Shown: positions 5,601 to 45,344 of the stretch, piece after piece | Numbering within the stretch: position 1 is the first letter of the stretch | How the letters are laid out: each line of letters begins with the position of its first letter | Virus record (IMG/VR): IMGVR_UViG_3300017971_004103 | Coordinates: 12,764 to 76,763 of that record | Source: a virus | Strand: one strand, 5' to 3' | DNA length: 64,000 nucleotides | Notes under the pieces: model-generated | Seen by the model: the letters and a program-made list of their open reading frames with translations, nothing else | Databases searched by the model: none | Told to the model about the DNA's origin: nothing | Program-made: the position numbers and the translations under genes

Positions 5601-5750
5601 ATGGGCAGGAAAAGTAGACTGAAAAAAGAGCAAAGAGAATCACCGAAAGAAAAGGGCATCCTAGAAACATGGAAAGATGATGTCGATGCCTTAATGGTGG
5701 GAGCCGTATTTTATGTAGCACTAATTTTATTAACATCAATCTTTAGATAG
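5601..5750 (+). CDS. 49-aa membrane protein
   Basis: Own translation: MGRKSRLKKEQRESPKEKGILETWKDDVDALMVGAVFYVALILLTSIFR; one TM helix. Confidence 0.4.
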   Translation: MGRKSRLKKEQRESPKEKGILETWKDDVDALMVGAVFYVALILLTSIFR

Positions 5751-5763
5751 AAGGAGAAAAACA

Positions 5764-6123
5764 ATGAAGAAAATTAAATCGTTAATTTTGGCAGTGGTAG
5801 GGATATTTTTGATGGTGTCCCTATGTGTTGCACTTCCTGGAATAAAGCAGTGGAAGGCCATATGGAATGCGAATACAGAATCAGATTTAGCAGGGTATAA
5901 ACTTTACTATAGTTCTACAAGTGGAAGTTATACCGATGCTAACAGCATAGACTGTGGCAACGTCACTGAATATAACTTAGATACCATTCCAAATGGTTCT
6001 TACCTGGTGCTTACTGCATATGATACCAGTGAGAATGAGGGGAATTTTTCGGGTGAAGTTTTTTTCGACAAGGACACGGTTGCTCCTGCAAGTCCTGGTG
6101 GACTGGCAATCGTGGAACAGTAA
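5764..6123 (+). CDS. Secreted fibronectin type III domain protein
   Basis: AAGGAG RBS, Sec signal peptide, WNANTESDLAGYKLYY...TAYDTSENE FN3 pattern. Confidence 0.75.
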   Translation: MKKIKSLILAVVGIFLMVSLCVALPGIKQWKAIWNANTESDLAGYKLYYSSTSGSYTDANSIDCGNVTEYNLDTIPNGSYLVLTAYDTSENEGNFSGEVFFDKDTVAPASPGGLAIVEQ

Positions 6124-6149
6124 AATTTGAGTGGAAGAAAAGAAATTAA

Positions 6150-6185
6150 AAGAGCGGCATCTTAATGGGTGCCGCTCTTAATTTA
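6150..6185. terminator. Stem-loop, possible terminator or processing site
   Basis: AAGAGCGGCATC pairs with GGTGCCGCTCTT; only a weak U-tract follows. Confidence 0.5.
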
Positions 6186-6197
6186 TGGGGACAAGGT

Positions 6198-7049
6198 ATG
6201 TTGTCGGTCATAATTCCGTCACGCACAGAAAGATTTTTAGATAATACAATAAGAGATGTTTTGGAAAAAGCCACTGGGAAAATAGAAGTGATACCAGTGC
6301 TTGATGGATATGAACCACCAGAACTCATTGAAGACGAAAGAGTAAAGTATTTAAGCCTTCCAAAATCCCGCAATACCCAAAAGAGACACGGCATTAATAA
6401 GGCAGTTTCTATTTGTAAGGGTGATTATGTGATGAGTCTTGATGCTCATTGCATGATGGATAAAGGATTTGATGAAAAACTAGCTGAGGCTCACCATCCC
6501 AATTGGGTACAAATCCCTCGCCGGAATAGATTGGATGCTGAAAACTGGTGTCTTCAGGATCAATGTGATGATCGTCCCCCGATTGATTATGAATATATTA
6601 TGTTTGCTCCCCTAATTAAAGATCGCTCCATACACGGATTCAAATGGGACAAAAGAACTTTAGATAGATGGGATATTCCCATTGATGATACCGTTGAATT
6701 TCAGGGTTCGTGCTGGTTTATGACCAAAGACTGGTATCACAAAATGGGGTTTATGCAGGTCGAGGGTTATACTGGATGGGGGCAGGAGGCCGAGGAAATA
6801 AGTTTAACTACTTGGAAAAACGGCGGTGAAGTCAAGACAAACAAAACCACTTGGTACGCACATTTGCATAAGGGTAAAAAGTACGGGCGCATGTATTGGA
6901 TGAGTCGGGAAGAGTGCCGTCGCAGTTATGCTTATTCATTTCAGAAATGGCTGATAGAAGAAAAGGAATTTTTTATTAATTTAATTGAGAGATTTTCCCC
7001 CCTCCCACAATGGCCGGAAAACTGGAAAGAAAAGCTGTGGAAACTTTAA
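6198..7049 (+). CDS. GT-A glycosyltransferase with ppGalNAc-transferase-like motifs
   Basis: LSVIIP, LDAHC (DxH), WGQEAEEISLTTWKNGG...WYAHLHK. Start moved to ATG 6198 because the upstream ATG lies inside the hairpin. Confidence 0.85.
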   Translation: MLSVIIPSRTERFLDNTIRDVLEKATGKIEVIPVLDGYEPPELIEDERVKYLSLPKSRNTQKRHGINKAVSICKGDYVMSLDAHCMMDKGFDEKLAEAHHPNWVQIPRRNRLDAENWCLQDQCDDRPPIDYEYIMFAPLIKDRSIHGFKWDKRTLDRWDIPIDDTVEFQGSCWFMTKDWYHKMGFMQVEGYTGWGQEAEEISLTTWKNGGEVKTNKTTWYAHLHKGKKYGRMYWMSREECRRSYAYSFQKWLIEEKEFFINLIERFSPLPQWPENWKEKLWKL

Positions 7050-7648
7050 AATATATTGTTGACAAATATAAAATAGATCTTTCACAACCATCGCCCTTTC
7101 ATCTTCCCATTGGACGATTTAAGGATGTTCCAAGGCTATTTAAAGAGCTTGGCTTTAAGGTTGGGGCTGAGGTGGGAACTTATCAGGGTGAATATGCAAG
7201 GTATCTTTTAAGGTATTGTCCTGGGTTGAAACTTTACGGCATTGATATGTGGAAATCATATAAGGGATATAAGGATTTCGGCGCGAATGATCTAATTGAT
7301 TCCCATCAAATAGCAAAAGAAAGGGTTAAGGGGTATGACTGCGAACTAATCCAGGGATGGAGCAATGAAGTTGTCAAACGAGTTTTAGATGAGAGCTTAG
7401 ACTTTGTTTTTATAGACGGCAATCACGCATATGAATATGTAGTTGAAGATATTGCTAATTGGTCAAAAAAGGTTAGAAGTGGCGGGATTGTCTACGGTCA
7501 TGACTTTGATGATTATACAAATAGAAGAAGATGGAAGCAGATGCACGTTATCCAGGCAGTTGAAGGGTGGGTGAAGTCGTACAAAATCCATCCGTGGTTT
7601 GTGCTGACCAATAACAAAAATAAAACATGGATGTATGTCAAGCCATAG
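7010..7648 (+). CDS. Class I SAM methyltransferase (Methyltransf_24-like)
   Basis: GAEVGTYQG, LDFVFIDGNH.YE.V..DI..W..KV..GG...GHD. True start may be GTG 7037. Confidence 0.85.
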   Translation: MAGKLERKAVETLKYIVDKYKIDLSQPSPFHLPIGRFKDVPRLFKELGFKVGAEVGTYQGEYARYLLRYCPGLKLYGIDMWKSYKGYKDFGANDLIDSHQIAKERVKGYDCELIQGWSNEVVKRVLDESLDFVFIDGNHAYEYVVEDIANWSKKVRSGGIVYGHDFDDYTNRRRWKQMHVIQAVEGWVKSYKIHPWFVLTNNKNKTWMYVKP

Positions 7649-8291
7649 CCTTACCATACTGTACTACACGGCAAATAGAGAAGATGAAAATTTTGCGAGT
7701 AGGATTCGAGAAAACATCCTTAGTGTTTCTGGTGGTTTACCAATTGTAAGTGTCTCACAAAAACCCCTGTGTTTTGGTAAAAATATTTGTGTGGGGATGC
7801 ATGATAATTGTTATCACAATGCTGCCCGCCAGGTGCAAATCGGACTAAGGGCTATAGATACTCCCTATGTAATTGCGGCAAATTCAGACACTCTTTATCC
7901 ACCGGAATATTTTCAATTCAAAATATCTGGAAGGGGGTGGGTTTATAGATACAACAATGTCTGGGTTCACTATACTCAATTTAAGGGACAGCCGAAATTT
8001 TGGTTTAAGGGCGTTAGTCATTGTGCTCAAGTAGTAGATAGAGAATTATGGCTGAAGCGAATTGATAGGGTTATGGATAAACTCCCTAAATGGAGAATTG
8101 ATAAAATCGATAGAATTTCCAGCATACACTTTAAACACTATGAACATATGGCCGCAGACAATCCAGTAATAACATTTAAAACAAGAACTGGGGTCAAATC
8201 TACAACTGCCGTGAAAAGAGGTCACTTACCGAAATATAGTTTGCCCTATTGGGGATCGGCAAAAGCATTGAGAGAAAAAATGTTTCAATGA
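7635..8291 (+). CDS. Divergent GT-A-like protein, paralogue of the C-terminal domain of 8967..10565
   Basis: Shares YYT.NR, LPI.SV, FG.NI.V, Q...GL and D.LY.P..F.F with that domain. Confidence 0.55.
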   Translation: MSSHSLTILYYTANREDENFASRIRENILSVSGGLPIVSVSQKPLCFGKNICVGMHDNCYHNAARQVQIGLRAIDTPYVIAANSDTLYPPEYFQFKISGRGWVYRYNNVWVHYTQFKGQPKFWFKGVSHCAQVVDRELWLKRIDRVMDKLPKWRIDKIDRISSIHFKHYEHMAADNPVITFKTRTGVKSTTAVKRGHLPKYSLPYWGSAKALREKMFQ

Positions 8292-8980
8292 AATTATCAA
8301 TCATAATCTCCGTATATCAAAGCCATGAAATTGTCCGAAGGCAGCTATTACATTTTAAAAAGATAAAATTACCATTTGAATTAATCATCGTTGATGATGG
8401 AAGCAGCCCCCCAATTGAGGGGGCTTTTTGTTGCACAAATAATAAGCTGGCATGGACACAGGGATTGGGCAGGAACCTCGGGGCATCTAAGGCAAGCGGT
8501 GAATATCTTTTTATGACAGATATTGACCACATCATATCGAGAGAAGCTATAGAAGATGCCCTCAATTTTACCGGCAACAAGATGATTTTCAGAAGGCAGA
8601 TTAGGGTTTTAGATGAAGATGGGAATATTAGGCAAGACAAAGAAACCCTAAAAGACTGGGGTTATGAAAAAGATAATTTAGATGCGAGCGTTCACGGCAA
8701 TACTTTTGTAATCAAAAAAGAAGTTTTTGAAAAGCTCGGTGGTTATGCAAGAAGCACTTGTACAATTGGTTATCACCCAGCCCGTCGCAAGGGAGATGAT
8801 TGTTACTTTAACTCTAAGTGGAATCGTACTTATCGAGGAATTAAGCCAGTAGTTGGTTCTGATATCTATATGTTTCCCATAGGTAGATTTCATAAGAATG
8901 GTGATTTAAACCCCAAAGGACTCTTTCACAATTTAAGTCAAACTAAGCAGGAGAAATTTTATAAGAATGCCACAGCTTAG
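8288..8980 (+). CDS. GT2 family glycosyltransferase
   Basis: KLSIIISVY, ELIIVDDGS, RNLGA, TDID (DxD), FEKLGGY; ATGA overlap with the previous gene. Confidence 0.85.
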   Translation: MKLSIIISVYQSHEIVRRQLLHFKKIKLPFELIIVDDGSSPPIEGAFCCTNNKLAWTQGLGRNLGASKASGEYLFMTDIDHIISREAIEDALNFTGNKMIFRRQIRVLDEDGNIRQDKETLKDWGYEKDNLDASVHGNTFVIKKEVFEKLGGYARSTCTIGYHPARRKGDDCYFNSKWNRTYRGIKPVVGSDIYMFPIGRFHKNGDLNPKGLFHNLSQTKQEKFYKNATA

Positions 8981-10565
8981 TGTCATCATCCCATCGAGAA
9001 ATGAGATGTTTCTCAATAACACCATTGAAGACATCTTAAAAAACAGTGAAGCAGATACTGAGATTATTGTGTGTTTAGATGGTCAATGGCCGATTGATCC
9101 GATTAAACAACATCCAAAAGTAAAGATAATATTCTTCCCTGAAAGTATCGGTCAGAGAGCCGCGACAAACAGGGGCGCTCGGATATCAGATGCAAAATAT
9201 CTCATGAAACTAGATGCCCACTGTTCTTTTGCTAAAGGATTTGATCGAGTTCTTTTAGAAGATATTCAAGATGATTGGACTATAGTCCCTCTCATGCGAA
9301 ACCTCCATGCCTTTGATTGGGTATGTAAAAATGGACACCGTAAATATCAAGGGCCGACTCCGGGGAAATGTGGAGAATGTGGCGAGCCCATGAAGCGGGA
9401 AATATTGTGGCGAGCAAAACCAAGTCCCAAAAGTACCTCCTATCGTTTTGACCGTACCCTGCATTTTCAATACTGGGGAGAATACAAAAAGCATCAAAAG
9501 GGTGATCTTGTAGAGACAATGTCATTACAGGGGTCATGCTTTATGATGCGACGTGATCGTTATTTTGATTTAAATATCTGTGATGAGACTTGGGGATCAT
9601 GGGGCAATCAAGGAACGGAAGTTGCGGTAAAATCATGGTTATCGGGTGGTAGAGTAATAGTTGATAAGCGTACTTGGTATGCTCATATGTTTAGGACGCA
9701 GGGTGGGGACTTCGGATTTCCATATCCACAATCAGGCAAAGCAGTTGAACGTGCAAGACAATGTTCCAGGGATTTATTTTTAAATGATAAATGGGATAAA
9801 GCCGTTCATCCCTTTAGCTGGCTGATTAATAAATTTAAGCCACCAGATTGGGAAGATGTGTGGCAAAAAGAACCCGACAAAAAGCCGACATCCCCCACCA
9901 AAGGAATTGTCTACTATACGGATAATCGGCTTAACATGAAGTTGGCCAAATTATGCCGGAACTACATCAAGAAATCTAATCTTCCCATCACATCGGTAAC
10001 CTTAAAGTCAACAGGCTTCGGACATAATATTGTTGTTAAGTCTGAGCCTAGCTATAAGACCATGTTCAAACAGATATTGACCGGTCTTAAAGAAGCCAAA
10101 GAGGACATTATATTTTTATGCGAGCACGATGTCTTATATCATCCGTCTCATTTTGAGTTTACACCAGAGGAAGAAAACACATTTTATTATAACGGATATT
10201 ATTGGATGGTTCGGCTAAAAGACGGCTTTGCTATTAACTATGATGTCAGCCCGCTATCTGGATTAGTCGCCTACAGAGAACCACTCATTACTCATTTCGA
10301 AGAGCGTGTAGCACTAATTGAAAAACAGGGATTCGGTTATTATATGGGATTTGAACCGATGACTCATAAGCGTATCAAGTGGGAGAATTGGTATGACTTT
10401 AAAATATTTAAACCCCAATATCCTAATGTTGATTTAGCACACGAAGGAAATTTAACTAACAAAAGATGGACGCAAAAGAAGTTTATACGAAAACCAAAGT
10501 TTTGGAATGAAGGAAGTATTAATAATATAGAAGGCTGGCCTAATTTGCCAAAATTATTAAGCTAA
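8967..10565 (+). CDS. Two-domain glycosyltransferase (ppGalNAc-T-like domain plus divergent GT-A-like domain)
   Basis: LSVIIPSRNE, LDAHC, WGNQGTEVAVKSWLSGG...WYAHMFR; inserted CxxxH...CxxC Zn-ribbon; second domain with EHD motif. Confidence 0.85.
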   Translation: MPQLSVIIPSRNEMFLNNTIEDILKNSEADTEIIVCLDGQWPIDPIKQHPKVKIIFFPESIGQRAATNRGARISDAKYLMKLDAHCSFAKGFDRVLLEDIQDDWTIVPLMRNLHAFDWVCKNGHRKYQGPTPGKCGECGEPMKREILWRAKPSPKSTSYRFDRTLHFQYWGEYKKHQKGDLVETMSLQGSCFMMRRDRYFDLNICDETWGSWGNQGTEVAVKSWLSGGRVIVDKRTWYAHMFRTQGGDFGFPYPQSGKAVERARQCSRDLFLNDKWDKAVHPFSWLINKFKPPDWEDVWQKEPDKKPTSPTKGIVYYTDNRLNMKLAKLCRNYIKKSNLPITSVTLKSTGFGHNIVVKSEPSYKTMFKQILTGLKEAKEDIIFLCEHDVLYHPSHFEFTPEEENTFYYNGYYWMVRLKDGFAINYDVSPLSGLVAYREPLITHFEERVALIEKQGFGYYMGFEPMTHKRIKWENWYDFKIFKPQYPNVDLAHEGNLTNKRWTQKKFIRKPKFWNEGSINNIEGWPNLPKLLS

Positions 10566-10595
10566 CCCCCTTACGACTATAAGGGGGTTTTTATT
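10564..10595 (+). terminator. Rho-independent terminator
   Basis: AACCCCCTTA / TAAGGGGGTT stem followed by a T-tract. Confidence 0.7.
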
Positions 10596-10605
10596 AGGAA
10601 TAAAG

Positions 10606-13600
10606 ATGACTCGATATACCAATATAGTAATTATGATTTTCTTTTTTTTGTTGATTAGCTGTAGTAATGGCTGGTGTCTTATCAGTAAGACATTAAAATC
10701 ATCTGGGGGAGATTATGCCTCTTGGGAAGAAATGATAACCGATCTTACGACGACCTATAATGCTTTATCAGACGATCTTACCGTTACCGTATCCCCCGCA
10801 AAATATGTAGAAGATACATATGCACCCACCTGTACGATTGATCTAAACGGACATACTGTAATTATAAAGGCCATTGATGGATATGGGCCCCATTCGTCTG
10901 ATGGAAAAACAGGGCCGCAATTTGATTTACAACTCCCAGACTCTGCTCATCATTTTTTATTTCTTGATGCAAAAGATACCGGACAATTTATCGTTGAGGG
11001 ACTTACATTTGATGTAGATGAATCTTCTTCTAGTCCAGCCAATGTTTTTTATTTAGCCAATGATGCTGCATCTGTAGTAACGATTAGAAATTGTGTATTT
11101 AAGGGGCAACAAGATGAGGATGCGATCTATTCCTCTAATATAAACACTACTATCCGCATATACAACAATTTTTTCTATAATTTCTATACCGCCATTACTA
11201 CCCTGTTTCAAGCAACTGATAGTTTTATTGGGAATAATACTATTTATGGATGTGCTCAATATGGAATCAGCCTTTCCAGCAAAGACATTTTAGCCATGAA
11301 TAATCTGGTTTACAATAATGGAACGGATTTTTTATTACCTGGAAGTGCTACTGGATATAATAATCTGTGTAGTGACACTACCTGTGAAGATGGTGATTTT
11401 AGTACTGGCAACGGTAATCAACCATCTAAAACAGTATCTTTTACCTCTACATCTGATGATGAGTATTTCCTTGCATCTGATGAGGTGATAGCAATTGATG
11501 GTGGGACTGTAACTGCGTACGATGATCTAGTCGCTCATTATAGATTTGAAAGAGGATATCTAACAGAAGATAGTAGTGATAATAGTAACACTATAACGGC
11601 AGTAAGTGATCCGGCATCAATTATGTCTGATTACAGGGAAGGTAACGGAGCAATAGATTATGATAGTGATGATTATCATGTAAGGCCTGATGGGGATTTA
11701 AGCGATGATTTTCCTGGCAAACAAGATTCAGCCAATACAGACCTAACAGTATCGCTCTGGATAAGACCCACTGGAAGTGGTAGTAATAATCGAGACCTTA
11801 TTTCGATTGCTGCTGCCGGTACTGAGAACGGTAAAATATGGGCTGTGCGTATTGATGCAAGTGATAAAATATCATTTTTAAAAGGTTACGACAATGGTGC
11901 ATCATGGGAAACAACAACTTATAGTACTGCCCTAACAGAAGGAAGTTCTGCCCCCTGGTATAGAATAGATGTTACCTACGATGAATCAGGGGCAATAGGA
12001 GCAGCAAAGGGCGTTAGAATTAGGGTGTGGGATGATACGGCTAAAGCATGGTTAAGTAGTGATACAACAGCTACTCATGGCAATGCTATGGATACCAGCA
12101 CAACGTATACACCTGACTTTGTAATTAATGCCCTTAAATATAATGGAACTTATTATCCATATGATTGTGAAATGGATGGCATTAGAATTTACAATAGAGC
12201 ATTAACTCCTGACGAATTAGATGAAGCATGGACATTAAATCACGATGCCTTTAATAGACCAAGGGATACATCTCCAGACATCGGTGCTTATGAATATATT
12301 GCGCCAGTTGATTACTATGTTAGTGCAGACAATGGAGATAACAGTAATAATGGAACAAGCACCTCTACTGAATGGGAAGATTTTACTAATGTCGATAGTA
12401 TGATATTCAATCCAGGTGATACGCTTAATCTAGCAATGGATGATGAATGGAATGATACTTTATGGATTACTGCCGTTGGTTCTACTGTAAATGGAAATGG
12501 GGTTACAGTAACAAAATATATTGATGATACAAGCACCACAAATCCTATAATACATGGTACATCCGGTAGTTATGGTATCAATTATAAAACCTCATCTCAT
12601 GTAATAACTGAAAATATAATAGCAGAAAGTTGTAGTTCTCATGGTATTTATGCTGCGAGTGCAAATGATTTAACTTTTACAAATGTAGAATCAAATCGCA
12701 ATGGTGGAGAAGGTGTAGATACAAGTATTTACAGTGGATTTACTTTTTATGCTATCGATAATCTTAATCTTACAAACTGTACTGGTAATTGGAATCATGG
12801 ACATGGCTTTTATCTAGGATATACAAATGATGGAACTTGTAATATTGCTGGATCAACATTTAATTATAATGGTCTTATACATGGAAATAAACAAGGATTT
12901 GGCATTCTAACGAGTTGTTACGCAGATAGTGGATATGATGATATCTTAAATGTAACTAACACAATTGCTAATTATAATGGATATATTGGTATCGGGCCTG
13001 GTACAAACAGTATTATAGATAATTGTACGGCTAATTATAATGGAGATGGTTGGGGAACACAGGGAGTAAAGATATTCTCTGGTACATTAACTGGGAATTT
13101 AGGTGATCTCGATACTGTTACACAAGAAAATACTAATGCTGCAGGAATAGTTCATCACTGCAATTCATCTTATTTTATAAAAGATGGACATAGTATTTGG
13201 TTATCACTATGGGAAGAATCTGGCACTTTTAATGGTACAGATAAAATTGTAAAAGATGTAAGTAATTATTGGGAACCTACTACTGTAATTGATTATGAGC
13301 CTGATTCTGACTGGTCTGGGGGGGGGATGGATTTAAGAAATAGTGATAATACAATAGTTAGGTATTGTTTAGCAATTGGCAATCTTACAGTTTATCATGT
13401 CGGAATAGATGGCTATGGCATTAATATAGATGATGAAACTGATGGGGCAAAGGTTTATTATAGTATAAGTACGTTTAATCGTGGCGCCGGTTTCAAGATA
13501 CATAATTCCGGTAAAGTAGCAATGAATTATTTATATCACTGTCTTTCATATGGAAATAGTGTATCTGTAGCTACTGCTGCTGGTATACATATTGCAGATT

Positions 13601-14388
13601 TAGAGGGCGGGGATGTTACTATTAAAAATTGCATATCTCTATTAGATACAAATTGGGCTTTCAGGGTAGCTGCTGCTAGTTTAGACACAGAAACACTGGT
13701 ACTAGATTATAATAATTATTACATGGGGGCAGGAGAGCAAGATTTGGTTAGGTGGGGAACAACTGAATATACCTCATTAGAATTTGAAGATTATCAAACC
13801 GATACTGGGCAGGATGTGAATTCAATAGCTACTGATCCCTCATTGGTTGATCCCGCCAATGGTGATTATAGACTAGCATTTGATTCACCTTGCATTGATA
13901 CTGGAGTTGACTTAACGGGAAGTACAGAAGCCACAGACTATCATGGAAACTCTGTTCCCGTTGATGGTGATCAGGCTGGTGGAGGGCAATCTGATATAGG
14001 TCATTATGAATATTCAATTGGATGGAAATGGGGAGCTGCATCAGAGGAGGCGGGATATCATGATGATGGATTAACCGAAAGGGGATGGACCGAGGGAACT
14101 GGTGCTATATCTGGTGATAGCCAAACAGGAATACTTGAATTAGATGATGATGAATATTTATTGGGGCCAGTGATAAATACCGGAAGTACAGCTACAAAGC
14201 ATTTGTCTATTTCCAAGGGCAGCGAATCTGGAACCGGCACTTTATGCTGGCGTGGTCAATCAACTAAATTTGAACAAACTGATACCGATCCTAGTTGGGA
14301 AGTATATAGCAAAAGTGAGAATAAGGATTGGCAATATGTCCAAATAGCTGTTGACAACGACGATGACAACTGTGCGTCTCTACCATAG
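10606..14388 (+). CDS. Large signal-peptide protein with right-handed beta-helix repeats, LamG-like domain and choice-of-anchor-Q-like motifs
   Basis: Hydrophobic N-terminus; NN-rich helix repeats; LVAHYRFE...IRIYNRALT (LamG); DPSLVDPANGDYRL...SPCIDTG and DIGAYEY. Confidence 0.75.
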   Translation: MTRYTNIVIMIFFFLLISCSNGWCLISKTLKSSGGDYASWEEMITDLTTTYNALSDDLTVTVSPAKYVEDTYAPTCTIDLNGHTVIIKAIDGYGPHSSDGKTGPQFDLQLPDSAHHFLFLDAKDTGQFIVEGLTFDVDESSSSPANVFYLANDAASVVTIRNCVFKGQQDEDAIYSSNINTTIRIYNNFFYNFYTAITTLFQATDSFIGNNTIYGCAQYGISLSSKDILAMNNLVYNNGTDFLLPGSATGYNNLCSDTTCEDGDFSTGNGNQPSKTVSFTSTSDDEYFLASDEVIAIDGGTVTAYDDLVAHYRFERGYLTEDSSDNSNTITAVSDPASIMSDYREGNGAIDYDSDDYHVRPDGDLSDDFPGKQDSANTDLTVSLWIRPTGSGSNNRDLISIAAAGTENGKIWAVRIDASDKISFLKGYDNGASWETTTYSTALTEGSSAPWYRIDVTYDESGAIGAAKGVRIRVWDDTAKAWLSSDTTATHGNAMDTSTTYTPDFVINALKYNGTYYPYDCEMDGIRIYNRALTPDELDEAWTLNHDAFNRPRDTSPDIGAYEYIAPVDYYVSADNGDNSNNGTSTSTEWEDFTNVDSMIFNPGDTLNLAMDDEWNDTLWITAVGSTVNGNGVTVTKYIDDTSTTNPIIHGTSGSYGINYKTSSHVITENIIAESCSSHGIYAASANDLTFTNVESNRNGGEGVDTSIYSGFTFYAIDNLNLTNCTGNWNHGHGFYLGYTNDGTCNIAGSTFNYNGLIHGNKQGFGILTSCYADSGYDDILNVTNTIANYNGYIGIGPGTNSIIDNCTANYNGDGWGTQGVKIFSGTLTGNLGDLDTVTQENTNAAGIVHHCNSSYFIKDGHSIWLSLWEESGTFNGTDKIVKDVSNYWEPTTVIDYEPDSDWSGGGMDLRNSDNTIVRYCLAIGNLTVYHVGIDGYGINIDDETDGAKVYYSISTFNRGAGFKIHNSGKVAMNYLYHCLSYGNSVSVATAAGIHIADLEGGDVTIKNCISLLDTNWAFRVAAASLDTETLVLDYNNYYMGAGEQDLVRWGTTEYTSLEFEDYQTDTGQDVNSIATDPSLVDPANGDYRLAFDSPCIDTGVDLTGSTEATDYHGNSVPVDGDQAGGGQSDIGHYEYSIGWKWGAASEEAGYHDDGLTERGWTEGTGAISGDSQTGILELDDDEYLLGPVINTGSTATKHLSISKGSESGTGTLCWRGQSTKFEQTDTDPSWEVYSKSENKDWQYVQIAVDNDDDNCASLP

Positions 14389-14396
14389 GTAAAAAT

Positions 14397-14570
14397 ATGA
14401 ATAAGCTTGAATATCTTAAAAAGAAATTAAGAATAATAAAAATCCTTTTAATAATGATTCCTATAATTGGAGGATTAGTTTATTCATTTATTATTAAAGA
14501 GTATTTTGAAACAAAACGAGAAATATATAAAATACAGGGCATTCGGCTAGTTGTGGCCCCGGCGAAGTAG
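14397..14570 (+). CDS. 57-aa single-TM protein
   Basis: Own translation: MNKLEYLKKKLRIIKILLIMIPIIGGLVYSFIIKEYF... Confidence 0.4.
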   Translation: MNKLEYLKKKLRIIKILLIMIPIIGGLVYSFIIKEYFETKREIYKIQGIRLVVAPAK

Positions 14571-14582
14571 GTGAAACAGTAA

Positions 14583-17500
14583 TTGGTGCAGTGGACAATT
14601 GACGATATAAAATTAGGACAGGGGCCATCTGATAGTCCATCTGTTTCACCATCAGTAAGTCCATCTGCTTCAGTATCACCGTCAGCCAGTGAATCGCCTA
14701 GTGTATCCCCCAGTGCGAGCGTTTCTCCTAGCGCGAGTGAATCGCCGAGCATGAGTCCTTCGGCATCTATTAGCCCATCGGCCAGCGAAAGCCCAAGCAT
14801 ATCACCGTCGGCCAGTGAATCTCCGTCAGAATCACCAAGCGTTTCACCGAGTATTTCTCCTTCGGCCTCTGAATCGCCGAGCGTAAGCCCGTCAGCCTCA
14901 GAAAGCCCATCTGTTTCGCCGTCCGCTTCTGTGAGTCCAAGTGCTTCTGAGTCGCCAAGTATATCTCCGAGTACTTCTGAATCACCATCGGAATCACCTT
15001 CAGTTAGCCCTTCCACCTCCATTAGTCCTAGTGTATCACCCTCTGCATCTGTCAGTCCATCTGAAAATTTATTTGATTACAATCAATCATTTGATGAATT
15101 AAATGATGGCGCCATAGATGGTCAGGATGGTTGGACGGAAGACCCCTTCGATAATGGTGCAATTGTTCAAACCAGTGTGGTATTTCATGGTGCAAAGGCA
15201 CTATCTTTTCCTATTGGCGAAGCAGATGATGAGATTATAGCTTATAGGGATTTTGCCGAGTATTTTACTGCTGGTACATTATATTTTGCCATACGTTTTT
15301 CTGATTTTTCTAATTGGGAAACAACTGAATATAGTACTATAGCACCCCTATATAATGATATCGGAAGCCTTATTTCACTTAGACCCGATGGTAATGACTT
15401 AAAAATAAGGGTTGAAGAAACTGGATATGGAACAAGCCATAGCAACTTAATTGAAACTATTTCTAATATTCAAGATAATACTTGGTATGCAATTGGTATA
15501 GAATGGGATATTTCACGCGGTACTAAAGGACAGGCAAGAGTACAGGTAAATTCGGGAGAATGGAGCGATTGGGTAGATTATTATGCAGAAGATTTACAGG
15601 GATTTAATTGCATATATTTGCATTGTGCTACTGGTGCTGGTAGAGGTTGCACTTTTTATTTTGATGAGATAAATTCTGAGGAAATAGAATCTAGTAGTAT
15701 TTCACCCTCGACCAGTGAATCGCCCAGCGTATCTCCTAGTAGTAGTGAAAGTCCATCGGTATCGCCCAGCACGAGCATATCTCCCAGTGAGAGCCCCTCC
15801 GAGAGTCCGAGTTTGTCGCCGTCTTCATCGGAATCTCCCTCTGTTAGTCCAAGTGCTTCGGTATCACCTTCAAGTTCAGAATCACCATCAGTGAGTCCGT
15901 CTACTTCGACCTCACCATCAGAATCACCTAGTATCAGTCCGAGCAGTTCAGCTAGCCCATCGGTATCGCCCAGTGCATCTGTTAGCCCTTCGGCGAGTGA
16001 ATCTCCTAGCGTTTCGCCCTCGACAAGTGAGAGTCCCTCAATAAGTCCGTCGGCTTCTATCAGTCCGAGTATTTCACCGAGTAGTAGCGAATCACCCAGT
16101 ATTTCACCATCTGCCTCCATTTCGCCATCTACCTCGGAAAGTCCCTCAGTATCGCCGTCGAGTTCGGAGAGCCCCTCAGCTTCTCCTAGTGCTAGTATTA
16201 GTCCTAGCACCTCGGAGTCGCCGAGTTTAAGCCCTAGCACAAGTGAGTCTCCATCGGTATCACCTAGTACATCTGAATCACCTAGTGAGTCACCGAGTAG
16301 TTCAGAGTCACCGTCAGTTAGTCCCTCGGCCAGCGTGAGCCCATCAAGTAGCGAGTCACCATCGACCAGTCCCTCAAGTTCCGAGTCACCCTCAATCAGT
16401 CCTAGCACTAGCGAGTCGCCATCAATATCACCGTCAGCAAGTGTATCACCGAGTGAGAGTTCATCAGAATCTTCTTCTCTTAGCCCCAGCGCTTCGGTTA
16501 GTCCGTCAATATCCCCAAGTAGTTCCGAATCGCCGTCATTGTCACCAAGTGCCAGTGTAAGCCCATCGGTAGGGTCGGCATCATTATCACCAAGTTCCAG
16601 TATATCGCCCTCGGTATCACCGAGTGCCTCTTTATCACCATCATCTTCAATTAGTCCGTCAAGCTCCGAGAGCCCGTCGGTGTCTCCATCGAGTTCAGAG
16701 AGTCCGAGTGTCAGTCCATCTTCAAGCGAGAGCCCCAGCGTCAGTCCCAGTGCATCAATTTCACCGAGTATTTCGCCGTCAGCTTCGGTTTCTCCATCAT
16801 CCTCAGAGTCGCCCTCCGTGAGTTCGTCGAGTTCCGAAAGTCCTAGTTTGAGCCCTTCATCATCGGAATCACCCTCGGTCAGTCCATCAGCGAGTGTCAG
16901 TCCCTCAAGTTCGATCAGTCCGTCAGTCTCTCCCTCGGCGTCAGTTAGTCCATCAACCAGTGAGAGCCCGTCGGTATCGCCAAGCGCAAGTGAGTCACCC
17001 AGTAGTAGTGAGTCACTCTCGGTGAGTCCATCGGCCTCTATTTCTCCGAGCAGCTCAGAGAGCCCCAGTGTCTCTCCCTCAGCATCAGAATCGCCAAGCC
17101 CGTCTGAGGGTTCTTCTTCTGAATCACCGTCTGAAAGTCCAAGCGTATCGCCGAGTGCTAGTATCAGTCCGAGTACATCAGAATCTCCATCTGTCAGTCC
17201 CTCGGCCAGCGTGAGCCCTTCAACCTCAATATCACCCTCGGTATCGCCAAGCGCCTCCGAGAGTCCCTCAGTCTCACCCTCGGTCAGTATGAGTCCCTCA
17301 GTCTCACCGAGCGCAAGTGAGTCGCCTTCAATATCACCGTCAAGTTCGGAAAGTCCATCGTTGAGCCCCAGTGCTTCCCTATCTCCATCGGCTAGTGAAA
17401 GCCCATCAGTCTCTCCGTCGGCATCCGTTAGTCCAAGTGCTTCCGTAAGCCCATCATGTGAGCCAGGGGAATATGAAAACCTGACAATCTACGACAAGGT

Positions 17501-18542
17501 AGATGAAGGAAATGATATAACTGTTGAATGCACTAAATCAACCTTCATTAATCTGGATAATTTAGATGAGGCTCATTTATCAAGGGATTTTGGCATAGAC
17601 TATTTTCAAAATTTTAGTATTGATTTTGAAGCTCAGATCACTTCCGTATCAAATGGTTCCGTTGTCGGGTTAATTGGAGTTACAAATTTACCGGAATCGA
17701 TAATGCCATGTGATCATGGGATTTTTGTTGATGTTAATGATGATCGCAAAGTTTATTTGATTGATCGAGACAGTGGATCGGGCATAACCTCTGGTGCTCT
17801 TACATTAAGCACAACTTATTATTTCACGTTTAGGCGAGATGAAAGTACAGCTTATGTAGATATTTACACGGATTCAGACAGAAACAATCTATTTCAAACC
17901 ATATCGCTTGAATGTGAAGCCATTAACTGGCGATATTTACAGGTAACTACATCACAAGAATGGGGATCAACTCCTGATAGGCTATGTTCTGGATGGGTAG
18001 ATCATGTATTAATTAATTATGCCTATAGTCCCTCATCTTCGGAAAGTCCTTCAGTAAGTCCGAGTGCGAGTTTATCGCCGTCAGCATCAGCCTCTCCCTC
18101 GGTGAGTCCTTCGGCATCTATTAGCCCATCGGTCTCCCCGAGTGCGAGCGTTTCTCCGTCGAGTTCGGAGTCGCTGTCGGTCTCACCTTCAGCCTCAGAA
18201 AGTCCGAGTGAGAGTCCTTCGGCCTCAGAATCACCCAGCGTGAGTCCTAGCGCCTCAGAGAGTCCGAGCCTTTCTCCCTCTGCGAGCATAAGCCCGTCGA
18301 GTTCCGAAAGTCCCTCGATAAGTCCCAGTGCATCAATTTCACCGAGTACCTCTGAGAGCCCGAGCATGTCGCCGAGCGCATCAGAATCACCTAGCGTTAG
18401 TCCATCTTCTAGTTTAAGTCCATCGATTTCACCGTCGGTTAGTCCCTCGGCTTCGGTTAGCCCCAGCGTATCACCGAGTGCATATGGTGAATCAAGATAT
18501 AGCTTCAAAAAACACATCAACAAGAGCTTTGAGGTAAAGTAA
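14583..18542 (+). CDS. Mucin-like Ser/Pro-rich repeat protein with two globular (lectin/jelly-roll-like) inserts; putative glycosylated virion fibre
   Basis: AGGTGA RBS plus TTG start; three SPSxS blocks separated by two ~200-aa aromatic-rich beta domains. Confidence 0.8.
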   Translation: MVQWTIDDIKLGQGPSDSPSVSPSVSPSASVSPSASESPSVSPSASVSPSASESPSMSPSASISPSASESPSISPSASESPSESPSVSPSISPSASESPSVSPSASESPSVSPSASVSPSASESPSISPSTSESPSESPSVSPSTSISPSVSPSASVSPSENLFDYNQSFDELNDGAIDGQDGWTEDPFDNGAIVQTSVVFHGAKALSFPIGEADDEIIAYRDFAEYFTAGTLYFAIRFSDFSNWETTEYSTIAPLYNDIGSLISLRPDGNDLKIRVEETGYGTSHSNLIETISNIQDNTWYAIGIEWDISRGTKGQARVQVNSGEWSDWVDYYAEDLQGFNCIYLHCATGAGRGCTFYFDEINSEEIESSSISPSTSESPSVSPSSSESPSVSPSTSISPSESPSESPSLSPSSSESPSVSPSASVSPSSSESPSVSPSTSTSPSESPSISPSSSASPSVSPSASVSPSASESPSVSPSTSESPSISPSASISPSISPSSSESPSISPSASISPSTSESPSVSPSSSESPSASPSASISPSTSESPSLSPSTSESPSVSPSTSESPSESPSSSESPSVSPSASVSPSSSESPSTSPSSSESPSISPSTSESPSISPSASVSPSESSSESSSLSPSASVSPSISPSSSESPSLSPSASVSPSVGSASLSPSSSISPSVSPSASLSPSSSISPSSSESPSVSPSSSESPSVSPSSSESPSVSPSASISPSISPSASVSPSSSESPSVSSSSSESPSLSPSSSESPSVSPSASVSPSSSISPSVSPSASVSPSTSESPSVSPSASESPSSSESLSVSPSASISPSSSESPSVSPSASESPSPSEGSSSESPSESPSVSPSASISPSTSESPSVSPSASVSPSTSISPSVSPSASESPSVSPSVSMSPSVSPSASESPSISPSSSESPSLSPSASLSPSASESPSVSPSASVSPSASVSPSCEPGEYENLTIYDKVDEGNDITVECTKSTFINLDNLDEAHLSRDFGIDYFQNFSIDFEAQITSVSNGSVVGLIGVTNLPESIMPCDHGIFVDVNDDRKVYLIDRDSGSGITSGALTLSTTYYFTFRRDESTAYVDIYTDSDRNNLFQTISLECEAINWRYLQVTTSQEWGSTPDRLCSGWVDHVLINYAYSPSSSESPSVSPSASLSPSASASPSVSPSASISPSVSPSASVSPSSSESLSVSPSASESPSESPSASESPSVSPSASESPSLSPSASISPSSSESPSISPSASISPSTSESPSMSPSASESPSVSPSSSLSPSISPSVSPSASVSPSVSPSAYGESRYSFKKHINKSFEVK
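14628..15062 (+). repeat. Ser-x coding repeat block 1 (SPS[AVIE]S..., ~145 aa)
   Basis: Ser at alternate codons in the translation. Confidence 0.9.
15690..17456 (+). repeat. Ser-x coding repeat block 2 (~589 aa)
   Basis: Ser at alternate codons in the translation. Confidence 0.9.
18027..18479 (+). repeat. Ser-x coding repeat block 3 (~151 aa)
   Basis: Ser at alternate codons in the translation. Confidence 0.9.
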
Positions 18543-18868
18543 TGGATACAGATTTTGAAAAATATACATACGAACAATTTCCCATTGAGTGTGATTTTGC
18601 CAATGTTTTGGATACTGGAGAAACATTGGTAGTCGCAAATTGTGAAATAAAGATTTATGATGAAGATGGTAAAGACGTAACTACAGCCATGTATGTAGAT
18701 GGTTCAATAAGTGTTGCGGATGGTAGCAAAACAAGTTCAAAATTAAAGGCAAAGATCAAGGCTGGAACTGCAGATGCTAAATATACGGTTAAGTTTAAGG
18801 CTACAAGTAGTGCTTCAAATAAATTTCAATTAGATAAAACTCTTTACGTAAAGTACGAAAATACCTAA
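18542..18868 (+). CDS. Fibre adaptor-like Ig-fold virion protein
   Basis: FEK...E......DF...L..GET...KAGT....Y.V...AT pattern seen in phage fibre adaptors; TAATG coupling to the Ser/Pro gene. Confidence 0.55.
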   Translation: MDTDFEKYTYEQFPIECDFANVLDTGETLVVANCEIKIYDEDGKDVTTAMYVDGSISVADGSKTSSKLKAKIKAGTADAKYTVKFKATSSASNKFQLDKTLYVKYENT

Positions 18869-18891
18869 TTGATAACCGCAAGGTAGATTAA

Positions 18892-19110
18892 ATGGTAGAA
18901 AGAAAAATAACAATAGATGGAATTCTAAATGGTGCAATTGATGTTACGGATGCCGATAACGAAGGACGATTGTTTTATATTACAAAAGAAACGGTAGATA
19001 TATTCATTGAAGGATTAAATAGTATCGAAACTAAAGATAAGCGAAAATTAAATATCATTCGATGGAGTCTCGATTTACTTGAGCAATTTAAAAAAGAATG
19101 GGAGGTGTAG
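18892..19110 (+). CDS. Hypothetical protein
   Basis: ORF with AAGGT RBS. Confidence 0.45.
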   Translation: MVERKITIDGILNGAIDVTDADNEGRLFYITKETVDIFIEGLNSIETKDKRKLNIIRWSLDLLEQFKKEWEV

Positions 19111-19262
19111 TGAAAAAAAGAAGATTACGATTTTGTTGGTCATGCAGTGATTATGTTCATCACGAACACAAATATAAGTGGACAGCGATTTTGTGCGGTA
19201 AGGTGCAATATTGCATACATGTATTAAAAAATTGGATTAAAAATTAATAGGAGGAAATAACA

Positions 19263-20012
19263 ATGACTGATGATAACAAACAAACAGTAACACAAGACGT
19301 AGAACCAGGAATAGTGCAGGCTCCAAATTCAACCCAAGTCCCAGCACCGGCACCATCAATGAGGCCGAATCTTTCACCAGCTGACCCCGGACATCCAGAA
19401 TACGATCCCCTTAAGGACGAAAAGGTAAAAAGCTATAGCAATAAATTGTTTACTCAGATTGCGGAGCGAGACAACGAGCTTAAAAGCCTTAAGGATATCC
19501 TTGAAAACACAAACGAAAAGTTAGCTTTATACGAGAAAGAAAAGAAAGAAAAAGAGGACAAGGATAAGACCGAATTGCAGTTAGCTAGTGAGAGGTTGTC
19601 TGCTCTTGAGAAGGAAAAGGCCGATTTGGCAAATCAATTGGAAAATACAAAAGCGAGTAGTAGTAAGATTAAAGTAAATCTTGAGGCACGCTTGCTGCTC
19701 ATGGAGGAACTTAGCCGGGCGGGCATTAAAACCAATTCGGCAGAACGCAAGGGATTGCAAGCCGAGCTTGAGGACAGGCTCAGCAAAAAGAAAGAGAATG
19801 AAGATTCATCTGATATTGCAAAAGCAATCGTTGTTGATTTTGGCAAAGACAAACAAAGTGCCTTTACACCGCCGGCCGAACCAAAGCCGGCAAAACCACA
19901 GAAAATAGAGCCGACTGATCTTCAAAAGAAGATAGTCGAATTATCAAGGAATTATGAAAAGAACAAGGATGAAATACAGGCAATCCTTAAGCAAATAGAA
20001 GCAAAAAAATAA
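19263..20012 (+). CDS. Capsid scaffolding protein
   Basis: AGGAGG RBS; charged coiled coil (KDKTELQLASERL); directly before the major capsid gene. Confidence 0.75.
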   Translation: MTDDNKQTVTQDVEPGIVQAPNSTQVPAPAPSMRPNLSPADPGHPEYDPLKDEKVKSYSNKLFTQIAERDNELKSLKDILENTNEKLALYEKEKKEKEDKDKTELQLASERLSALEKEKADLANQLENTKASSSKIKVNLEARLLLMEELSRAGIKTNSAERKGLQAELEDRLSKKKENEDSSDIAKAIVVDFGKDKQSAFTPPAEPKPAKPQKIEPTDLQKKIVELSRNYEKNKDEIQAILKQIEAKK

Positions 20013-26860: not shown

Positions 26861-27370
26861 ATGGAAATAAAGACAATACCTATTTCTAAATTAAAATTCG
26901 CTGATTATAATCCTCGCCAGCATCCAGACAAAGCCATTGAGCGATTAGTTAAATCTATAGAAAAATACGGGTGGACTAATCCGGTGCTTGTGCAGAAAGG
27001 ATCACATATTATTATAGCGGGTCATGCCAGAGTAAGGGCAGCCCAAAAACTAGGCATTAAAAAAGTACCTGTTATATATCTTGATTTTGACGATGTTACT
27101 ACCAAGGCTTATGCGATAGCCGATAATCGCCTTGCAGAACTTACAGAATGGGACTACCCCCTCCTAAAAAATCTTGTTGTGGATATTGATGATGGGGCAT
27201 TTGATCTTGAATTAACCGGATTTGATGAGCTTGAGCTTAAAGAGGTTTTTGATTATGAGGGGTTGAATGTAGACAACAAGGGCGGCAAGACCGGAAGCTC
27301 TAAGAATAAAACACTTGTATGCCCCGAATGTGGCTATGAGTTCCCCTCTAAAAAAGGCAAAGAAAATTGA
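26861..27370 (+). CDS. ParB/Srx N-terminal domain protein with C-terminal Zn-ribbon
   Basis: YNPR.H, SI..YGW..PV, IIAGH.R..AA, IADNRL.E...WD; CPECGYEF. Confidence 0.85.
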   Translation: MEIKTIPISKLKFADYNPRQHPDKAIERLVKSIEKYGWTNPVLVQKGSHIIIAGHARVRAAQKLGIKKVPVIYLDFDDVTTKAYAIADNRLAELTEWDYPLLKNLVVDIDDGAFDLELTGFDELELKEVFDYEGLNVDNKGGKTGSSKNKTLVCPECGYEFPSKKGKEN

Positions 27371-32291: not shown

Positions 32292-32484
32292 TGATTATCA
32301 CTCAAAGCCTGACCAAAAGAAAAATCGGGCGCTACGAAATGCAGCTCGTAAAAGGGCGGGTTTAAAAGTTGGCGATCCAAGGGAGGTTGATCATAAAAAA
32401 CCACTGTCAAAGGGCGGCACTAATAGAAAGAATAATTTAAGAATTATATTGCGAAAGACAAACCGGAAAAAGGGAAAGAGGTGA
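32257..32484 (+). CDS. Small HNH endonuclease
   Basis: RDYKKEY...EVDHKKPLSKGGTN...NL......NR.K. Confidence 0.85.
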   Translation: MRKKRDYKKEYNDYHSKPDQKKNRALRNAARKRAGLKVGDPREVDHKKPLSKGGTNRKNNLRIILRKTNRKKGKR

Positions 32485-38847: not shown

Positions 38848-38850
38848 AAA

Positions 38851-45278: not shown

Positions 45279-45344
45279 TAAGCAGTAGTGGGTGGGGGAA
45301 TTTCTCCTCACCTTATTTATGCAGATAAGACCCTTAAAATTCTG

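Follow-up and report, generated by a model that had tools for sequence, protein, structure and literature searches.

GT27-Like Glycosyltransferases beside a Serine-Rich Repeat Gene in a Phage Head-Gene Block: A Candidate Protein O-Glycosylation Module

Results

Architecture of the Locus

We analyzed a 64,000-nt stretch of viral DNA (the window; bases 12764–76763 of a single 76,763-bp virus record in IMG/VR) in which a glycosyltransferase (GT) cassette precedes a gene for a giant Ser-rich repeat protein. The cassette spans positions 6198–10565 and encodes five soluble enzymes, named here in gene order GT_A, the methyltransferase, o7635, GT_B, and GT_C. The repeat protein, which we call the SPS protein after its Ser-Pro-Ser (SPS) triplets, is encoded at 14583–18542. 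All of these genes lie on the plus strand, which holds nearly all window genes. A sequence-only reading of this DNA had described the same genes, motifs, and repeat protein, and these observations are confirmed.

The SPS protein (1319 aa, with 509 Ser and 177 Pro) is the proposed glycosylation substrate. Its three repeat blocks, at about residues 15–160, 370–960, and 1150–1300, total 888 residues, 883 of which are in strict (S-x)n alternation with SPS units spaced 4 or 6 residues apart. The blocks contain 473 Ser, 91% of them with Pro at position −1, +1, or +3, versus 17 Thr. No hydrophobic N-terminus or signal peptide was found. These values agree with the about 885 aa of repeats, at least 440 Ser, and missing signal peptide of the sequence-only reading. 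The remainder of the protein consists of two orphan globular domains (about residues 160–370 and 955–1150) and a 19-aa basic C-terminal tail. Because the globular domains resemble nothing in Pfam, the Protein Data Bank (PDB), a 5.8-billion-protein search, or each other, the earlier description of them as lectin-like is unsupported.

The SPS gene begins with TTG, 9 nt after a Shine–Dalgarno-like AGGTG, and its frame alone is open for 1319 codons. Ser is encoded by all six of its codons and TRF finds almost no tandem repeats in the DNA, which indicates that the periodicity is kept at the protein level.

GT_A and GT_C Resemble Polypeptide GalNAc-Transferases

GT_A (6198–7049, plus strand; 283 aa) is a soluble GT-A glycosyltransferase with a GT27-like catalytic domain, and we regard it as a candidate peptide O-glycosyltransferase. 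Its open reading frame (ORF) extends upstream to 6165, and an alignment of 21 family members places the start at the Met at 6198. GT_C (8967–10565, plus strand) has two domains, of which the first (residues 1–300) is GT27-like and the second (residues 312–532) is an o7635-like GT-A domain with an EHDVLYHP motif. GT_A carries LDAHC, WGQEAEEISLTTWKNGG, and WYAHLHK, comprising a DxH motif (D93-A-H95) and WGQEAEE; the corresponding motifs of GT_C are LDAHC, WGNQGTEVAVKSWLSGG, and WYAHMFR, comprising DAH (D83-A-H85), WGNQGTE, and AHMFR. The LDAHC and WYAHLHK/WYAHMFR motifs on which the sequence-only reading had built its comparison with the polypeptide N-acetylgalactosamine (GalNAc) transferases (ppGalNAc-Ts, family GT27) are thus present in both enzymes.

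Pfam classes both proteins as family-2 glycosyltransferases (GT2 E = 1.2e-12 for GT_A). The PF00535 scores are 48.5, 37.7, and 61.4 bits for GT_A, GT_B, and GT_C, respectively (cut-off 23.3), and in GT_A and GT_C this match is limited to the N-terminal ~110 residues, the nucleotide-binding half. When the sequences were compared with all PDB chains by phmmer, ppGalNAc-Ts came out on top (E = 5e-6 for GT_A and 1.6e-6 for GT_C). They are the best PDB matches of GT_A, GT_C, and the family profiles (E = 1e-5 to 1.6e-6), and the similarity covers the whole catalytic domain; in the GT_A family profile, residues 3–262 align with the entire catalytic domain of GalNAc-T1.

Structure prediction gave a concordant picture. 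An AlphaFold2 model of GT_C built from an alignment of 16 sequences has a mean pLDDT of 82, and the first ~49 matches of this model in Foldseek are all ppGalNAc-Ts (E = 2.6e-15 to 4e-11). With VIA-align, 29 GT27 entries superimpose with Z scores of 20.7–24.6 and a root-mean-square deviation (rmsd) of 2.6–3.0 Å over ~260 residues, and residues 1–300 of the model align with residues 135–441 of GalNAc-T2. The best enzymes from outside GT27 (a Leptospira GT, WrtF, and RmlT) reach Z scores of 16–18.6. The top matches in the PDB and Foldseek searches are ppGalNAc-Ts, and in VIA-align GT27 stands above every ordinary GT2 enzyme, which bears out the GT27 likeness that had been proposed for the genes at 6198 and 8967. 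On the evidence of sequence and predicted fold, ppGalNAc-Ts are the best match both to GT_A and to the N-terminal half of GT_C.

The DxH, WGxxxxE, and H-x-F-R positions are invariant across the GT_A and GT_C alignments. DAH and the His of AH(L/M)(H/F)(K/R) are kept throughout, and the second motif, which aligns with WGGENLE of GT27, is altered to WGQEAEE or WGNQGTE. The sequence FRTQGGDFGFPY is likewise invariant; it aligns with HVFRK..PYTFP of GT27 and forms the sole low-pLDDT loop of the GT_C model (residues 241–254). We take its position to be that of the flexible loop with which GalNAc-T2 covers its UDP-GalNAc donor and the bound peptide. Within its GT27-like domain, GT_C also carries a Cys/His-rich, zinc-ribbon-like insertion (WVCxxGHxxYxGP…CxxCG) at residues ~118–141 (window 9318–9389), which is kept in all 16 aligned relatives, is longer in some of them, and is absent from GT_A.

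These enzymes are not members of GT27 as that family is defined, because they lack its lectin domain and membrane anchor and have the altered second motif. Pfam finds no ricin-type lectin domain. GT_A ends after its catalytic domain, and the C-terminal domain of GT_C is an alpha/beta domain with an EHD motif; o7635, the separate protein paralogous to that domain, is modeled with a GT-A fold. A type II membrane anchor is likewise missing from both proteins (maximum KD19 hydrophobicity of 0.72 in GT_A and 0.81 in GT_C).

The Other Cassette Enzymes

The sequence-only reading had listed a methyltransferase and two further GT-like genes in the block, and all three are found. The methyltransferase (7010–7648, plus strand) belongs to Methyltransf_24 (Pfam E = 5.5e-18), depends on S-adenosylmethionine, and is probably a sugar O-methyltransferase; it is kept in the cassette at most loci described below. 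GT_B (8249–8980, plus strand) matches the Pfam families Glyco_tranf_2_2 (E = 1.2e-9) and Glycos_transf_2 (E = 2.6e-9) and occurs in part of the related cassettes. The remaining protein, o7635 (7635–8291, plus strand), has no Pfam or NCBIfam family. Its AlphaFold2 model (pLDDT 81.6) shows a generic GT-A fold, with VIA-align Z scores of 12–13 to WrtF, SpsA, B4GALNT1, TarS, and others, and its Foldseek matches include SpsA and the A64R capsid GT of the virus PBCV-1. An invariant Asp85 stands in an x-x-D motif after strand beta-4, where GT-A enzymes carry DxD, and we consider o7635 a candidate elongating glycosyltransferase.

Sequence comparison identifies o7635 as a paralogue of the C-terminal half of GT_C (residues 312–532). 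Since GT_A is fused to an o7635-like domain at two related loci (L010 and L011), the cassette appears to contain two copies of one two-domain machine, one split and one fused, together with a GT2 enzyme and a methyltransferase. A KD19 scan detected no hydrophobic segments in the five cassette enzymes or in the SPS protein.

The Cassette and SPS Repeats Occur Together

We found 1581 relatives of GT_A, the best 120 of which share 64–85% identity; one of these 120 is annotated as a Patescibacteria glycosyltransferase. At the first 21 loci (9 viral contigs and 12 contigs of metagenome-assembled genomes, MAGs), the gene order GT_A, methyltransferase, (o7635), (GT_B), GT_C is conserved, where parentheses mark genes that are not always present, and an SPS-repeat ORF is usually found after GT_C or ahead of GT_A. 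A GT_C relative is encoded on 228 IMG/VR contigs. Among 81 distinct viral contigs with a GT_C relative, 68 contain an SPS-repeat ORF within 10 kb, defined by at least 8 SPS triplets and S + P of at least 55% in a 60-residue window. Each of the 106 SPS-repeat ORFs near viral cassettes lies on the GT strand, and most of the 13 SPS-free contigs end within a few kilobases of the cassette.

The association was also approached from the repeat side. SPS-type 8-mers are rare, with only 446 matching stretches across the entire contig collection (stated size, 2.9 million); 2 of these 446 matches passed tblastn, owing to low-complexity filtering, and both loci recovered in this way carry GT_A/GT_C relatives. 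An exact DNA pattern for the repeats was dropped because Ser uses six codons: a pattern restricted to TCN matches 20 of 116 known ORFs, and thousands of chance matches are expected for a WSN-codon pattern. The capsid protein of the window, the intended source of matched controls, has no relatives in the viral contig collection, and so no cassette-free sister phages were obtained.

SPS giants are also present in all five cassette-bearing MAGs tested, although the 10-kb flanks of these cassettes had seemed partly SPS-free. These proteins range from 1034 to 3985 aa, and in four of the five MAGs the gene lies on the same contig and strand as the cassette, just past the 10-kb flank. Open frames of this kind include G003:C45:104828–115414 (3985 aa), G002:C15:49859–56926 (2620 aa), and G001:C3:4–7347 (2662 aa). 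SPS giants directly downstream of the cassette were seen in Patescibacteria MAGs of 1.0–1.4 Mb, where one such gene takes up to ~1% of the genome. In an even sample of 201 Patescibacteria genomes, three were positive for GT_A (E ≤ 1e-40), four for SPS repeats, and three for both (hypergeometric P = 3e-6; 1.5e-4 when the seed genome is excluded). The link between these GTs and SPS genes, raised as a prediction by the sequence-only reading, is seen in 68 of 81 viral contigs, five of five MAGs, and all three GT-positive sampled genomes, well above chance expectation.

The globular parts to which the repeats are joined differ from locus to locus and include LamG_3 (L009), Gly_rich_2 (L013 and L019), a propeller-like domain (L003), and the orphan domains of the window. 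SPS repeats behave like a portable tag.

Position of the Module in Phage and Cellular Genomes

Several assignments show that the cassette and the SPS gene lie among the late head genes of a tailed phage: a large terminase (681–2021; phrog_2, E = 3.7e-32), an SPP1-type portal (2060–3532), a scaffold-like protein (19263–20012), a major capsid protein (20148–21191; phrog_334, PF13252), and a tail tube protein (51148–52230). The block had been described as lying between portal/minor head genes and scaffold/capsid genes; this position stands, but the supposed minor head gene at 4602–5522 matches no family.

A related arrangement recurs in another phage lineage. Fifteen viral proteins of 210–400 aa (alignment A4, which includes L009 9093–9950) form a new family and consist of a conserved ~110-residue N-domain with the motif …ILEAEGNTLPTGYxGFKxGAxF… followed by an SPS tail. 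At each of the 13 loci with a visible upstream gene, the gene for this small protein directly follows that of a phrog_267 major head protein and precedes GT_A. The N-domain has no PHROG or PDB relative, and the protein is a candidate glycosylated head-decoration protein. At L002 and L009, the cassette again lies in the head module, and the terminase and capsid families differ from those of the window, indicating that the cassette has settled in the head modules of unrelated phages. Of the arguments for a virion destination, this placement in head modules is the strongest, and it is a positional one.

The module also sits in cellular genomes of the candidate phyla radiation (CPR) and is therefore not phage-specific. 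The MAG loci L011, L013, and L014 have cellular neighbors, with TatC in all three, histidine kinases at L011, and a SpaA-like protein at L013. TatC, accompanied by a 77–78-aa ORF, lies 2–3 kb upstream of these cassettes (L011 6906–7664, L013 7024–7782, and L014 7022–7780); it is confirmed by Pfam at L011 and L013, and at L014 it is an ORF of the same size in the same position. A phrog_2 query found no terminase of that family in the five cassette-bearing MAGs. The cellular SPS giants lack signal peptides.

In a GT_A tree, phage and MAG sequences interleave and the GT_A of the window pairs with that of the viral locus L001. Only 3 of 23 branches are well supported, so the tree serves solely to show this interleaving. 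The cellular MAG neighbors and the interleaved GT_A sequences make a Patescibacteria bacterium (an ultra-small CPR bacterium) the most likely host of the phage and suggest that the module moves between hosts and phages. Five MAG contigs (L010, L012, L014, L015, and L020) are labeled "uncultured Pseudomonadales" or "Methanosarcinales", and their cassettes group with Collierbacteria/Patescibacteria copies; these bins are probably mislabeled or contaminated.

Genes beside the Cassette and the SPS Gene

Directly downstream of the SPS gene is a gene for a 108-aa protein (18542–18868, plus strand) whose ATG overlaps the SPS stop codon as TAATG at 18540–18544. The sequence-only reading had described the SPS gene as coupled to a fiber-adaptor-like gene. 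The overlap is real, but the adaptor identity does not hold up: the match to PF23148 (the podophage GP4 fiber-tail adaptor gp77; E = 1.5e-5) scores 25.9 bits, under the 27-bit cut-off, and the PDB offers no significant match (8jou_D, E = 0.89).

Between the GT genes and the SPS gene lies a gene for a 1260-aa protein (10606–14388, plus strand) with a right-handed beta-helix (Pfam Beta_helix, E = 5e-16) and a LamG-like domain (Laminin_G_3, E = 1.6e-8), which also matches the NCBIfam family choice_anch_Q at 31 bits (cut-off 25). It has a lipoprotein-like N-terminus with a lipobox-like …LISC sequence (KD19 2.24 at residues 8–26). This protein is not conserved with the cassette, as a homologue is present at 1 of 100 loci (L031), and its role is uncertain. 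Equally uncertain is whether a 119-aa protein encoded directly upstream of GT_A (5764–6123, plus strand) belongs to the module. It carries an N-terminal hydrophobic signal (maximum KD19 2.82 at residues 6–24) and has no Pfam or PHROG family; the small SPS-tailed protein takes its position in other phages. Two proteins with N-terminal hydrophobic signals (5764–6123 and 10606–14388) are unusual within a phage head-gene block. The interval between the beta-helix and SPS genes also contains a 57-aa ORF with one transmembrane-like hydrophobic helix (14397–14570, plus strand); this ORF may not be a real gene.

Sugar-Supply Genes and the Phage Record

A second, larger glycan block (32481–46411) lies between neck and tail genes. 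It contains a trio of the GDP-heptose type (NTP-transferase, GHMP kinase, and SIS isomerase), a GDP-mannose 4,6-dehydratase (GDP-6-deoxyhexose type), an epimerase, and a Gfo/Idh/MocA oxidoreductase. The same block encodes a radical SAM enzyme, a B12-radical SAM enzyme, an FAD amine-oxidase-like protein, two methyltransferases (one of them Methyltransf_24), a GT2, two CgeB-like GTs, and a GT4. A GT9 heptosyltransferase-like gene and another GT4 gene stand among the head and neck genes (24960–26111 and 27367–28335). The phage thus has at least six GTs beyond the cassette and at least 11 GT domains altogether in 77 kb. The heptose and deoxyhexose nucleotide-sugar genes suggest that it can make unusual sugar donors itself, and the phage data give no argument for GalNAc in particular as the first sugar.

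The phage is uncultured. Public runs containing it come from sediment and seawater metagenomes only, and no RNA runs are listed among them. A Logan re-assembly of positions 5700–19300 shows zero differences from the record but probably derives from the same reads; as the two phage-holding runs look like one data set filed twice, this identity is not an independent confirmation. The Logan contigs of the two runs (76,755 and 76,756 bases) have the same ends as the 76,763-bp record. An exact terminal repeat of at least 11 bases is absent from the whole record, and its ends may be real termini.

Discussion

A Proposed O-Glycosylation Pathway

We consider it fairly likely that this block represents a protein O-glycosylation module common to CPR/Patescibacteria and their phages, here in a copy carried by a phage, and that the SPS protein is its substrate and most likely a virion fiber. 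The interpretation offered by the sequence-only reading is partly supported, in that the enzyme likeness and the enzyme–substrate linkage hold. The analysis establishes the genes, their motifs, the GT27-like fold, the solubility of the enzymes, and the co-occurrence with SPS repeats. From these we infer, with moderate confidence, that the SPS serines are O-glycosylated in the cytoplasm; which acceptor and sugar are used, in what order the enzymes act, and whether the product sits on the virion or capsid are matters of the same inference.

In the proposed pathway, GT_A, the N-domain of GT_C, or both would use a Mn2+-bound nucleotide sugar, held by the DxH motif and the distal His, to place a first sugar on the Ser hydroxyls of (S-P-S-x / S-x)n. 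The glycan would be extended by o7635, the C-domain of GT_C, and GT_B, and the Methyltransf_24 enzyme would cap it by methylating a sugar. In this phage the substrate would be the 1319-aa SPS protein, encoded 4 kb downstream. Once glycosylated, its three repeat blocks could form stiff, protease-resistant, and hydrophilic bottle-brush stalks that space the two globular domains, and the product would become part of the virion, as a glycosylated fiber of its head or neck. A virion destination appears most likely because the SPS protein has no signal peptide and is encoded among late head genes, with the portal gene on one side and the scaffold and capsid genes on the other. The sugars are probably placed directly on the protein in the cytoplasm, since the enzymes are soluble, the SPS protein is without an export signal, and lipid-carrier, flippase, and polymerase genes did not appear among the families detected in the scanned parts of the genome. 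Such direct cytoplasmic glycosylation would parallel the serine-rich repeat protein (SRRP), SdgA/SdgB, mycobacteriophage, and chlorovirus systems discussed below.

A number of observations weigh against this proposal. The likeness of GT_A and GT_C to GT27 amounts to ~20% identity and is one of fold and motifs, and the lectin domain and membrane anchor of GT27 are absent. GT-A enzymes with similar motifs, such as GT7 and the chondroitin and heparosan synthases, act on sugars. The two-domain synthases K4CP and PmHS2 align over both domains of GT_C, if poorly (Z scores of 16–17 and rmsd of 10–19 Å). Support for glycosylation comes from sequence, models, and co-occurrence, and it is gene neighborhood that speaks for a peptide acceptor. 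The genomes in the 2 × 2 table of 201 genomes are not phylogenetically independent, and MAG bins may hold phage contigs. For a virion location the evidence is gene position, the gp77-like neighbor being below threshold, and a signal-bearing beta-helix protein is encoded between the GTs and the SPS gene. Finally, because the module also sits in cellular genomes in which no terminase was found, the phage copy could serve the surface of the infected cell.

Alternative Explanations

This last point leads to the reading that we take most seriously after our own, which we nevertheless judge unlikely. Here the chemistry would be the same and the destination different: the block would be a moron-like copy of a host surface-fiber module whose products act on the surface of the infected cell rather than in virions. 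Remodeling of that surface by the glycosylated SPS protein, together with the beta-helix lipoprotein and the signal-bearing 119-aa protein, would serve superinfection exclusion, for instance, or help an episymbiont to attach to its own host. The cellular Patescibacteria contigs that carry the cassette and SPS giants beside TatC and histidine kinases, without a detectable phrog_2 terminase, are consistent with this idea, as are the export signals of two proteins in or beside the block and the interleaving of phage and MAG GT_A sequences. A study of Patescibacteriota phages reads lectin-like and O-antigen sugar auxiliary metabolic genes (AMGs) as promoting symbiotic attachment (PMC12911398). Such a role is harder to reconcile with an SPS protein that lacks a signal peptide, with a block placed on the structural strand among late head genes, and with the SPS-tailed protein that directly follows the major capsid gene at 13 of 13 loci of another phage lineage. 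The missing signal peptide does not cleanly separate the two destinations, since the cellular SPS giants lack one as well.

It seems to us improbable, more so than a cell-surface destination, that the GTs act on a non-protein acceptor (a free oligo- or polysaccharide, a cell-wall polymer, or a small molecule) and that the SPS repeats are unglycosylated flexible spacers travelling along. The GT2 class that Pfam assigns to GT_A, GT_B, and GT_C, the alignment of K4CP and heparosan synthase 2 with both halves of GT_C, and weak NCBIfam matches to polysaccharide synthases would fit such an activity. However, it leaves unexplained why a rare repeat and a rare GT family are neighbors that share a strand in 68 of 81 viral contigs and also co-occur across whole genomes. 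The five enzymes have no membrane segment and no lipid-carrier, flippase, or polymerase accompanies them among the families in the scanned parts, and the best structural matches are peptide-acceptor enzymes, clearly above the sugar-acceptor GT2s. We rejected as very improbable the explanation that the SPS ORF is an assembly artefact or a chance frame in low-complexity DNA. Its composition is indeed odd (GC 0.49 versus about 0.39), and the opposite strand also has ORFs of 180–250 aa. Against this stand the single frame open for 1319 codons, the Shine–Dalgarno sequence and start codon, and the stop codon that overlaps the next start. The use of six Ser codons with almost no TRF repeats points to periodicity selected at the protein level, more than 100 comparable ORFs occupy the same genomic position elsewhere, and the Logan contigs are identical.

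Comparison with Known Systems

Our preferred reading, a phage-borne O-glycosylation module acting on SPS repeats, can be set beside several systems. With GT27, represented by human GalNAc-T2 (PDB 2FFU/4D0T), the phage enzymes have in common the GT-A domain, the DxH and WGxxxxE motifs, the distal His in H-x-F-R, and a flexible loop conserved at the equivalent position; the presumed acceptors are Ser residues next to Pro in long disordered repeats. GT27 enzymes possess a lectin domain and a type II anchor and work in the Golgi lumen, transferring GalNAc from UDP-GalNAc to Ser/Thr with retention of configuration, whereas the phage enzymes are cytoplasmic and ~20% identical to them. GT_C further differs in its second GT-A domain and its Cys/His insertion, and both phage enzymes carry WGQEAEE or WGNQGTE in place of the GT27 motif WGGENxE. 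GT27 enzymes generally prefer Thr, in contrast to the phage repeats, whose potential acceptors are almost all Ser (17 Thr versus 473 Ser).

In Gram-positive bacteria, SRRPs are glycosylated in the cytoplasm by dedicated GTs, including GtfA/GtfB, that are encoded beside the Ser-repeat substrate, and they are linked to an accessory Sec system (PMC6973325, PMC7661464). As in the window, very long Ser-rich repeat regions flank globular parts and the substrate gene lies near its GTs. SRRP glycosylation is initiated by a GT4 pair, GtfA/B, with a GT-B fold. The phage candidates are instead GT-A, GT27-like enzymes, the repeat is S-P-S-x rather than S-A/V/T-S, and the organisms are CPR bacteria and phages rather than Gram-positive bacteria. 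GtfA/GtfB and SecA2/SecY2, for which no dedicated search was made, did not turn up among the scanned neighbors, and it is TatC, not SecA2/Y2, that neighbors the cellular cassettes.

A second bacterial parallel is provided by the Ser-Asp repeat proteins of staphylococci, in which SdgA and SdgB glycosylate the repeats; as the title of one report states, this modification affects immunogenicity and protects the proteins (PMC3794999). In those proteins, too, Ser strictly alternates with a partner residue, and it is modified by two dedicated neighboring GTs. They differ in that the partner residue is Asp rather than Pro, Val, Glu, or Ala, in the GT family involved, and in being cell-wall-anchored adhesins with signal peptides and no phage connection.

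Among phages, the mycobacteriophages Che8, Corndog, and Myrna glycosylate their own virion proteins with phage-encoded cytoplasmic GTs (Freeman et al. 2023, as summarized in PMC12363180 and PMC11256854). In Che8, gp108 is a GT2 + Methyltransf_24 fusion, gp109 a GT2, and gp110 a GT25. The combination of GT2 and Methyltransf_24 in one operon is the likeness, and these Pfam-level families are the only ones common to Che8 and the window. GT_A appears unrelated to the Che8 GTs (hhalign probability of 0.3% with gp110 and 0.2% with gp109), BLASTP of the methyltransferase and GT_B against gp108 gave nothing significant, and a tblastn search of GT_A against 50,697 phage records returned no match at E = 1e-3. 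These mycobacteriophages modify capsid and tail-tube proteins, as opposed to the dedicated repeat protein proposed here, and they encode their GTs close to the 3′ genome end rather than inside the head-gene block.

The giant virus PBCV-1 decorates its own surface proteins in the cytoplasm with its own GT-A enzymes (A64R) and nucleotide-sugar pathways. Virus-encoded GT-A enzymes together with sugar genes are common to PBCV-1 and the window, and A64R is, as noted, among the Foldseek matches of o7635. PBCV-1 is a eukaryotic virus, and the similarity is at the level of the generic GT-A fold only; we know of no Ser-alternating repeat substrate described for it.

Lectin-like and O-antigen sugar AMGs have been mentioned in Patescibacteriota phages, and no such GT27-like module is reported there (PMC12911398). 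Full-text literature searches returned nothing relevant on GT27-like enzymes in phages or on Ser-repeat glycosylation in CPR bacteria. Dedicated O-glycosylation of Ser repeats and self-glycosylation by phages are already known; we found no published description of this enzyme family, of the SPS repeat tag, or of their wide spread in CPR phages.

Conclusions

The core claim is testable by ordinary co-expression and mass spectrometry. If it is true, this phage would join the mycobacteriophages as the second example of virion glycosylation in phages, and by far the more elaborate one, employing a dedicated repeat "tag" together with enzymes of a kind hitherto tied to eukaryotic mucin biosynthesis. 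It would provide a testable function for a very conserved, unnamed enzyme family (1581 relatives, 228 IMG/VR contigs) and a compact soluble enzyme set with a sequence tag for bacterial glyco-engineering. It would also hint at how CPR cells and their phages build their surfaces, with possible consequences for attachment, resistance to proteases and desiccation, and receptor masking. More tentatively, and at slightly less than even odds, CPR/Patescibacteria and many of their phages may share a prokaryotic "mucin-type" system in which cytoplasmic, lectin-less relatives of ppGalNAc-Ts start O-glycans on a portable (S-P-S-x)n tag, one that could be joined to any globular domain. Phages might then coat their capsids or fibers with a glycan brush made partly from their own heptose and deoxy-sugar nucleotides. 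The family could be the prokaryotic kin of eukaryotic GT27, and the finding, if true, raises the question of where GT27 originated.

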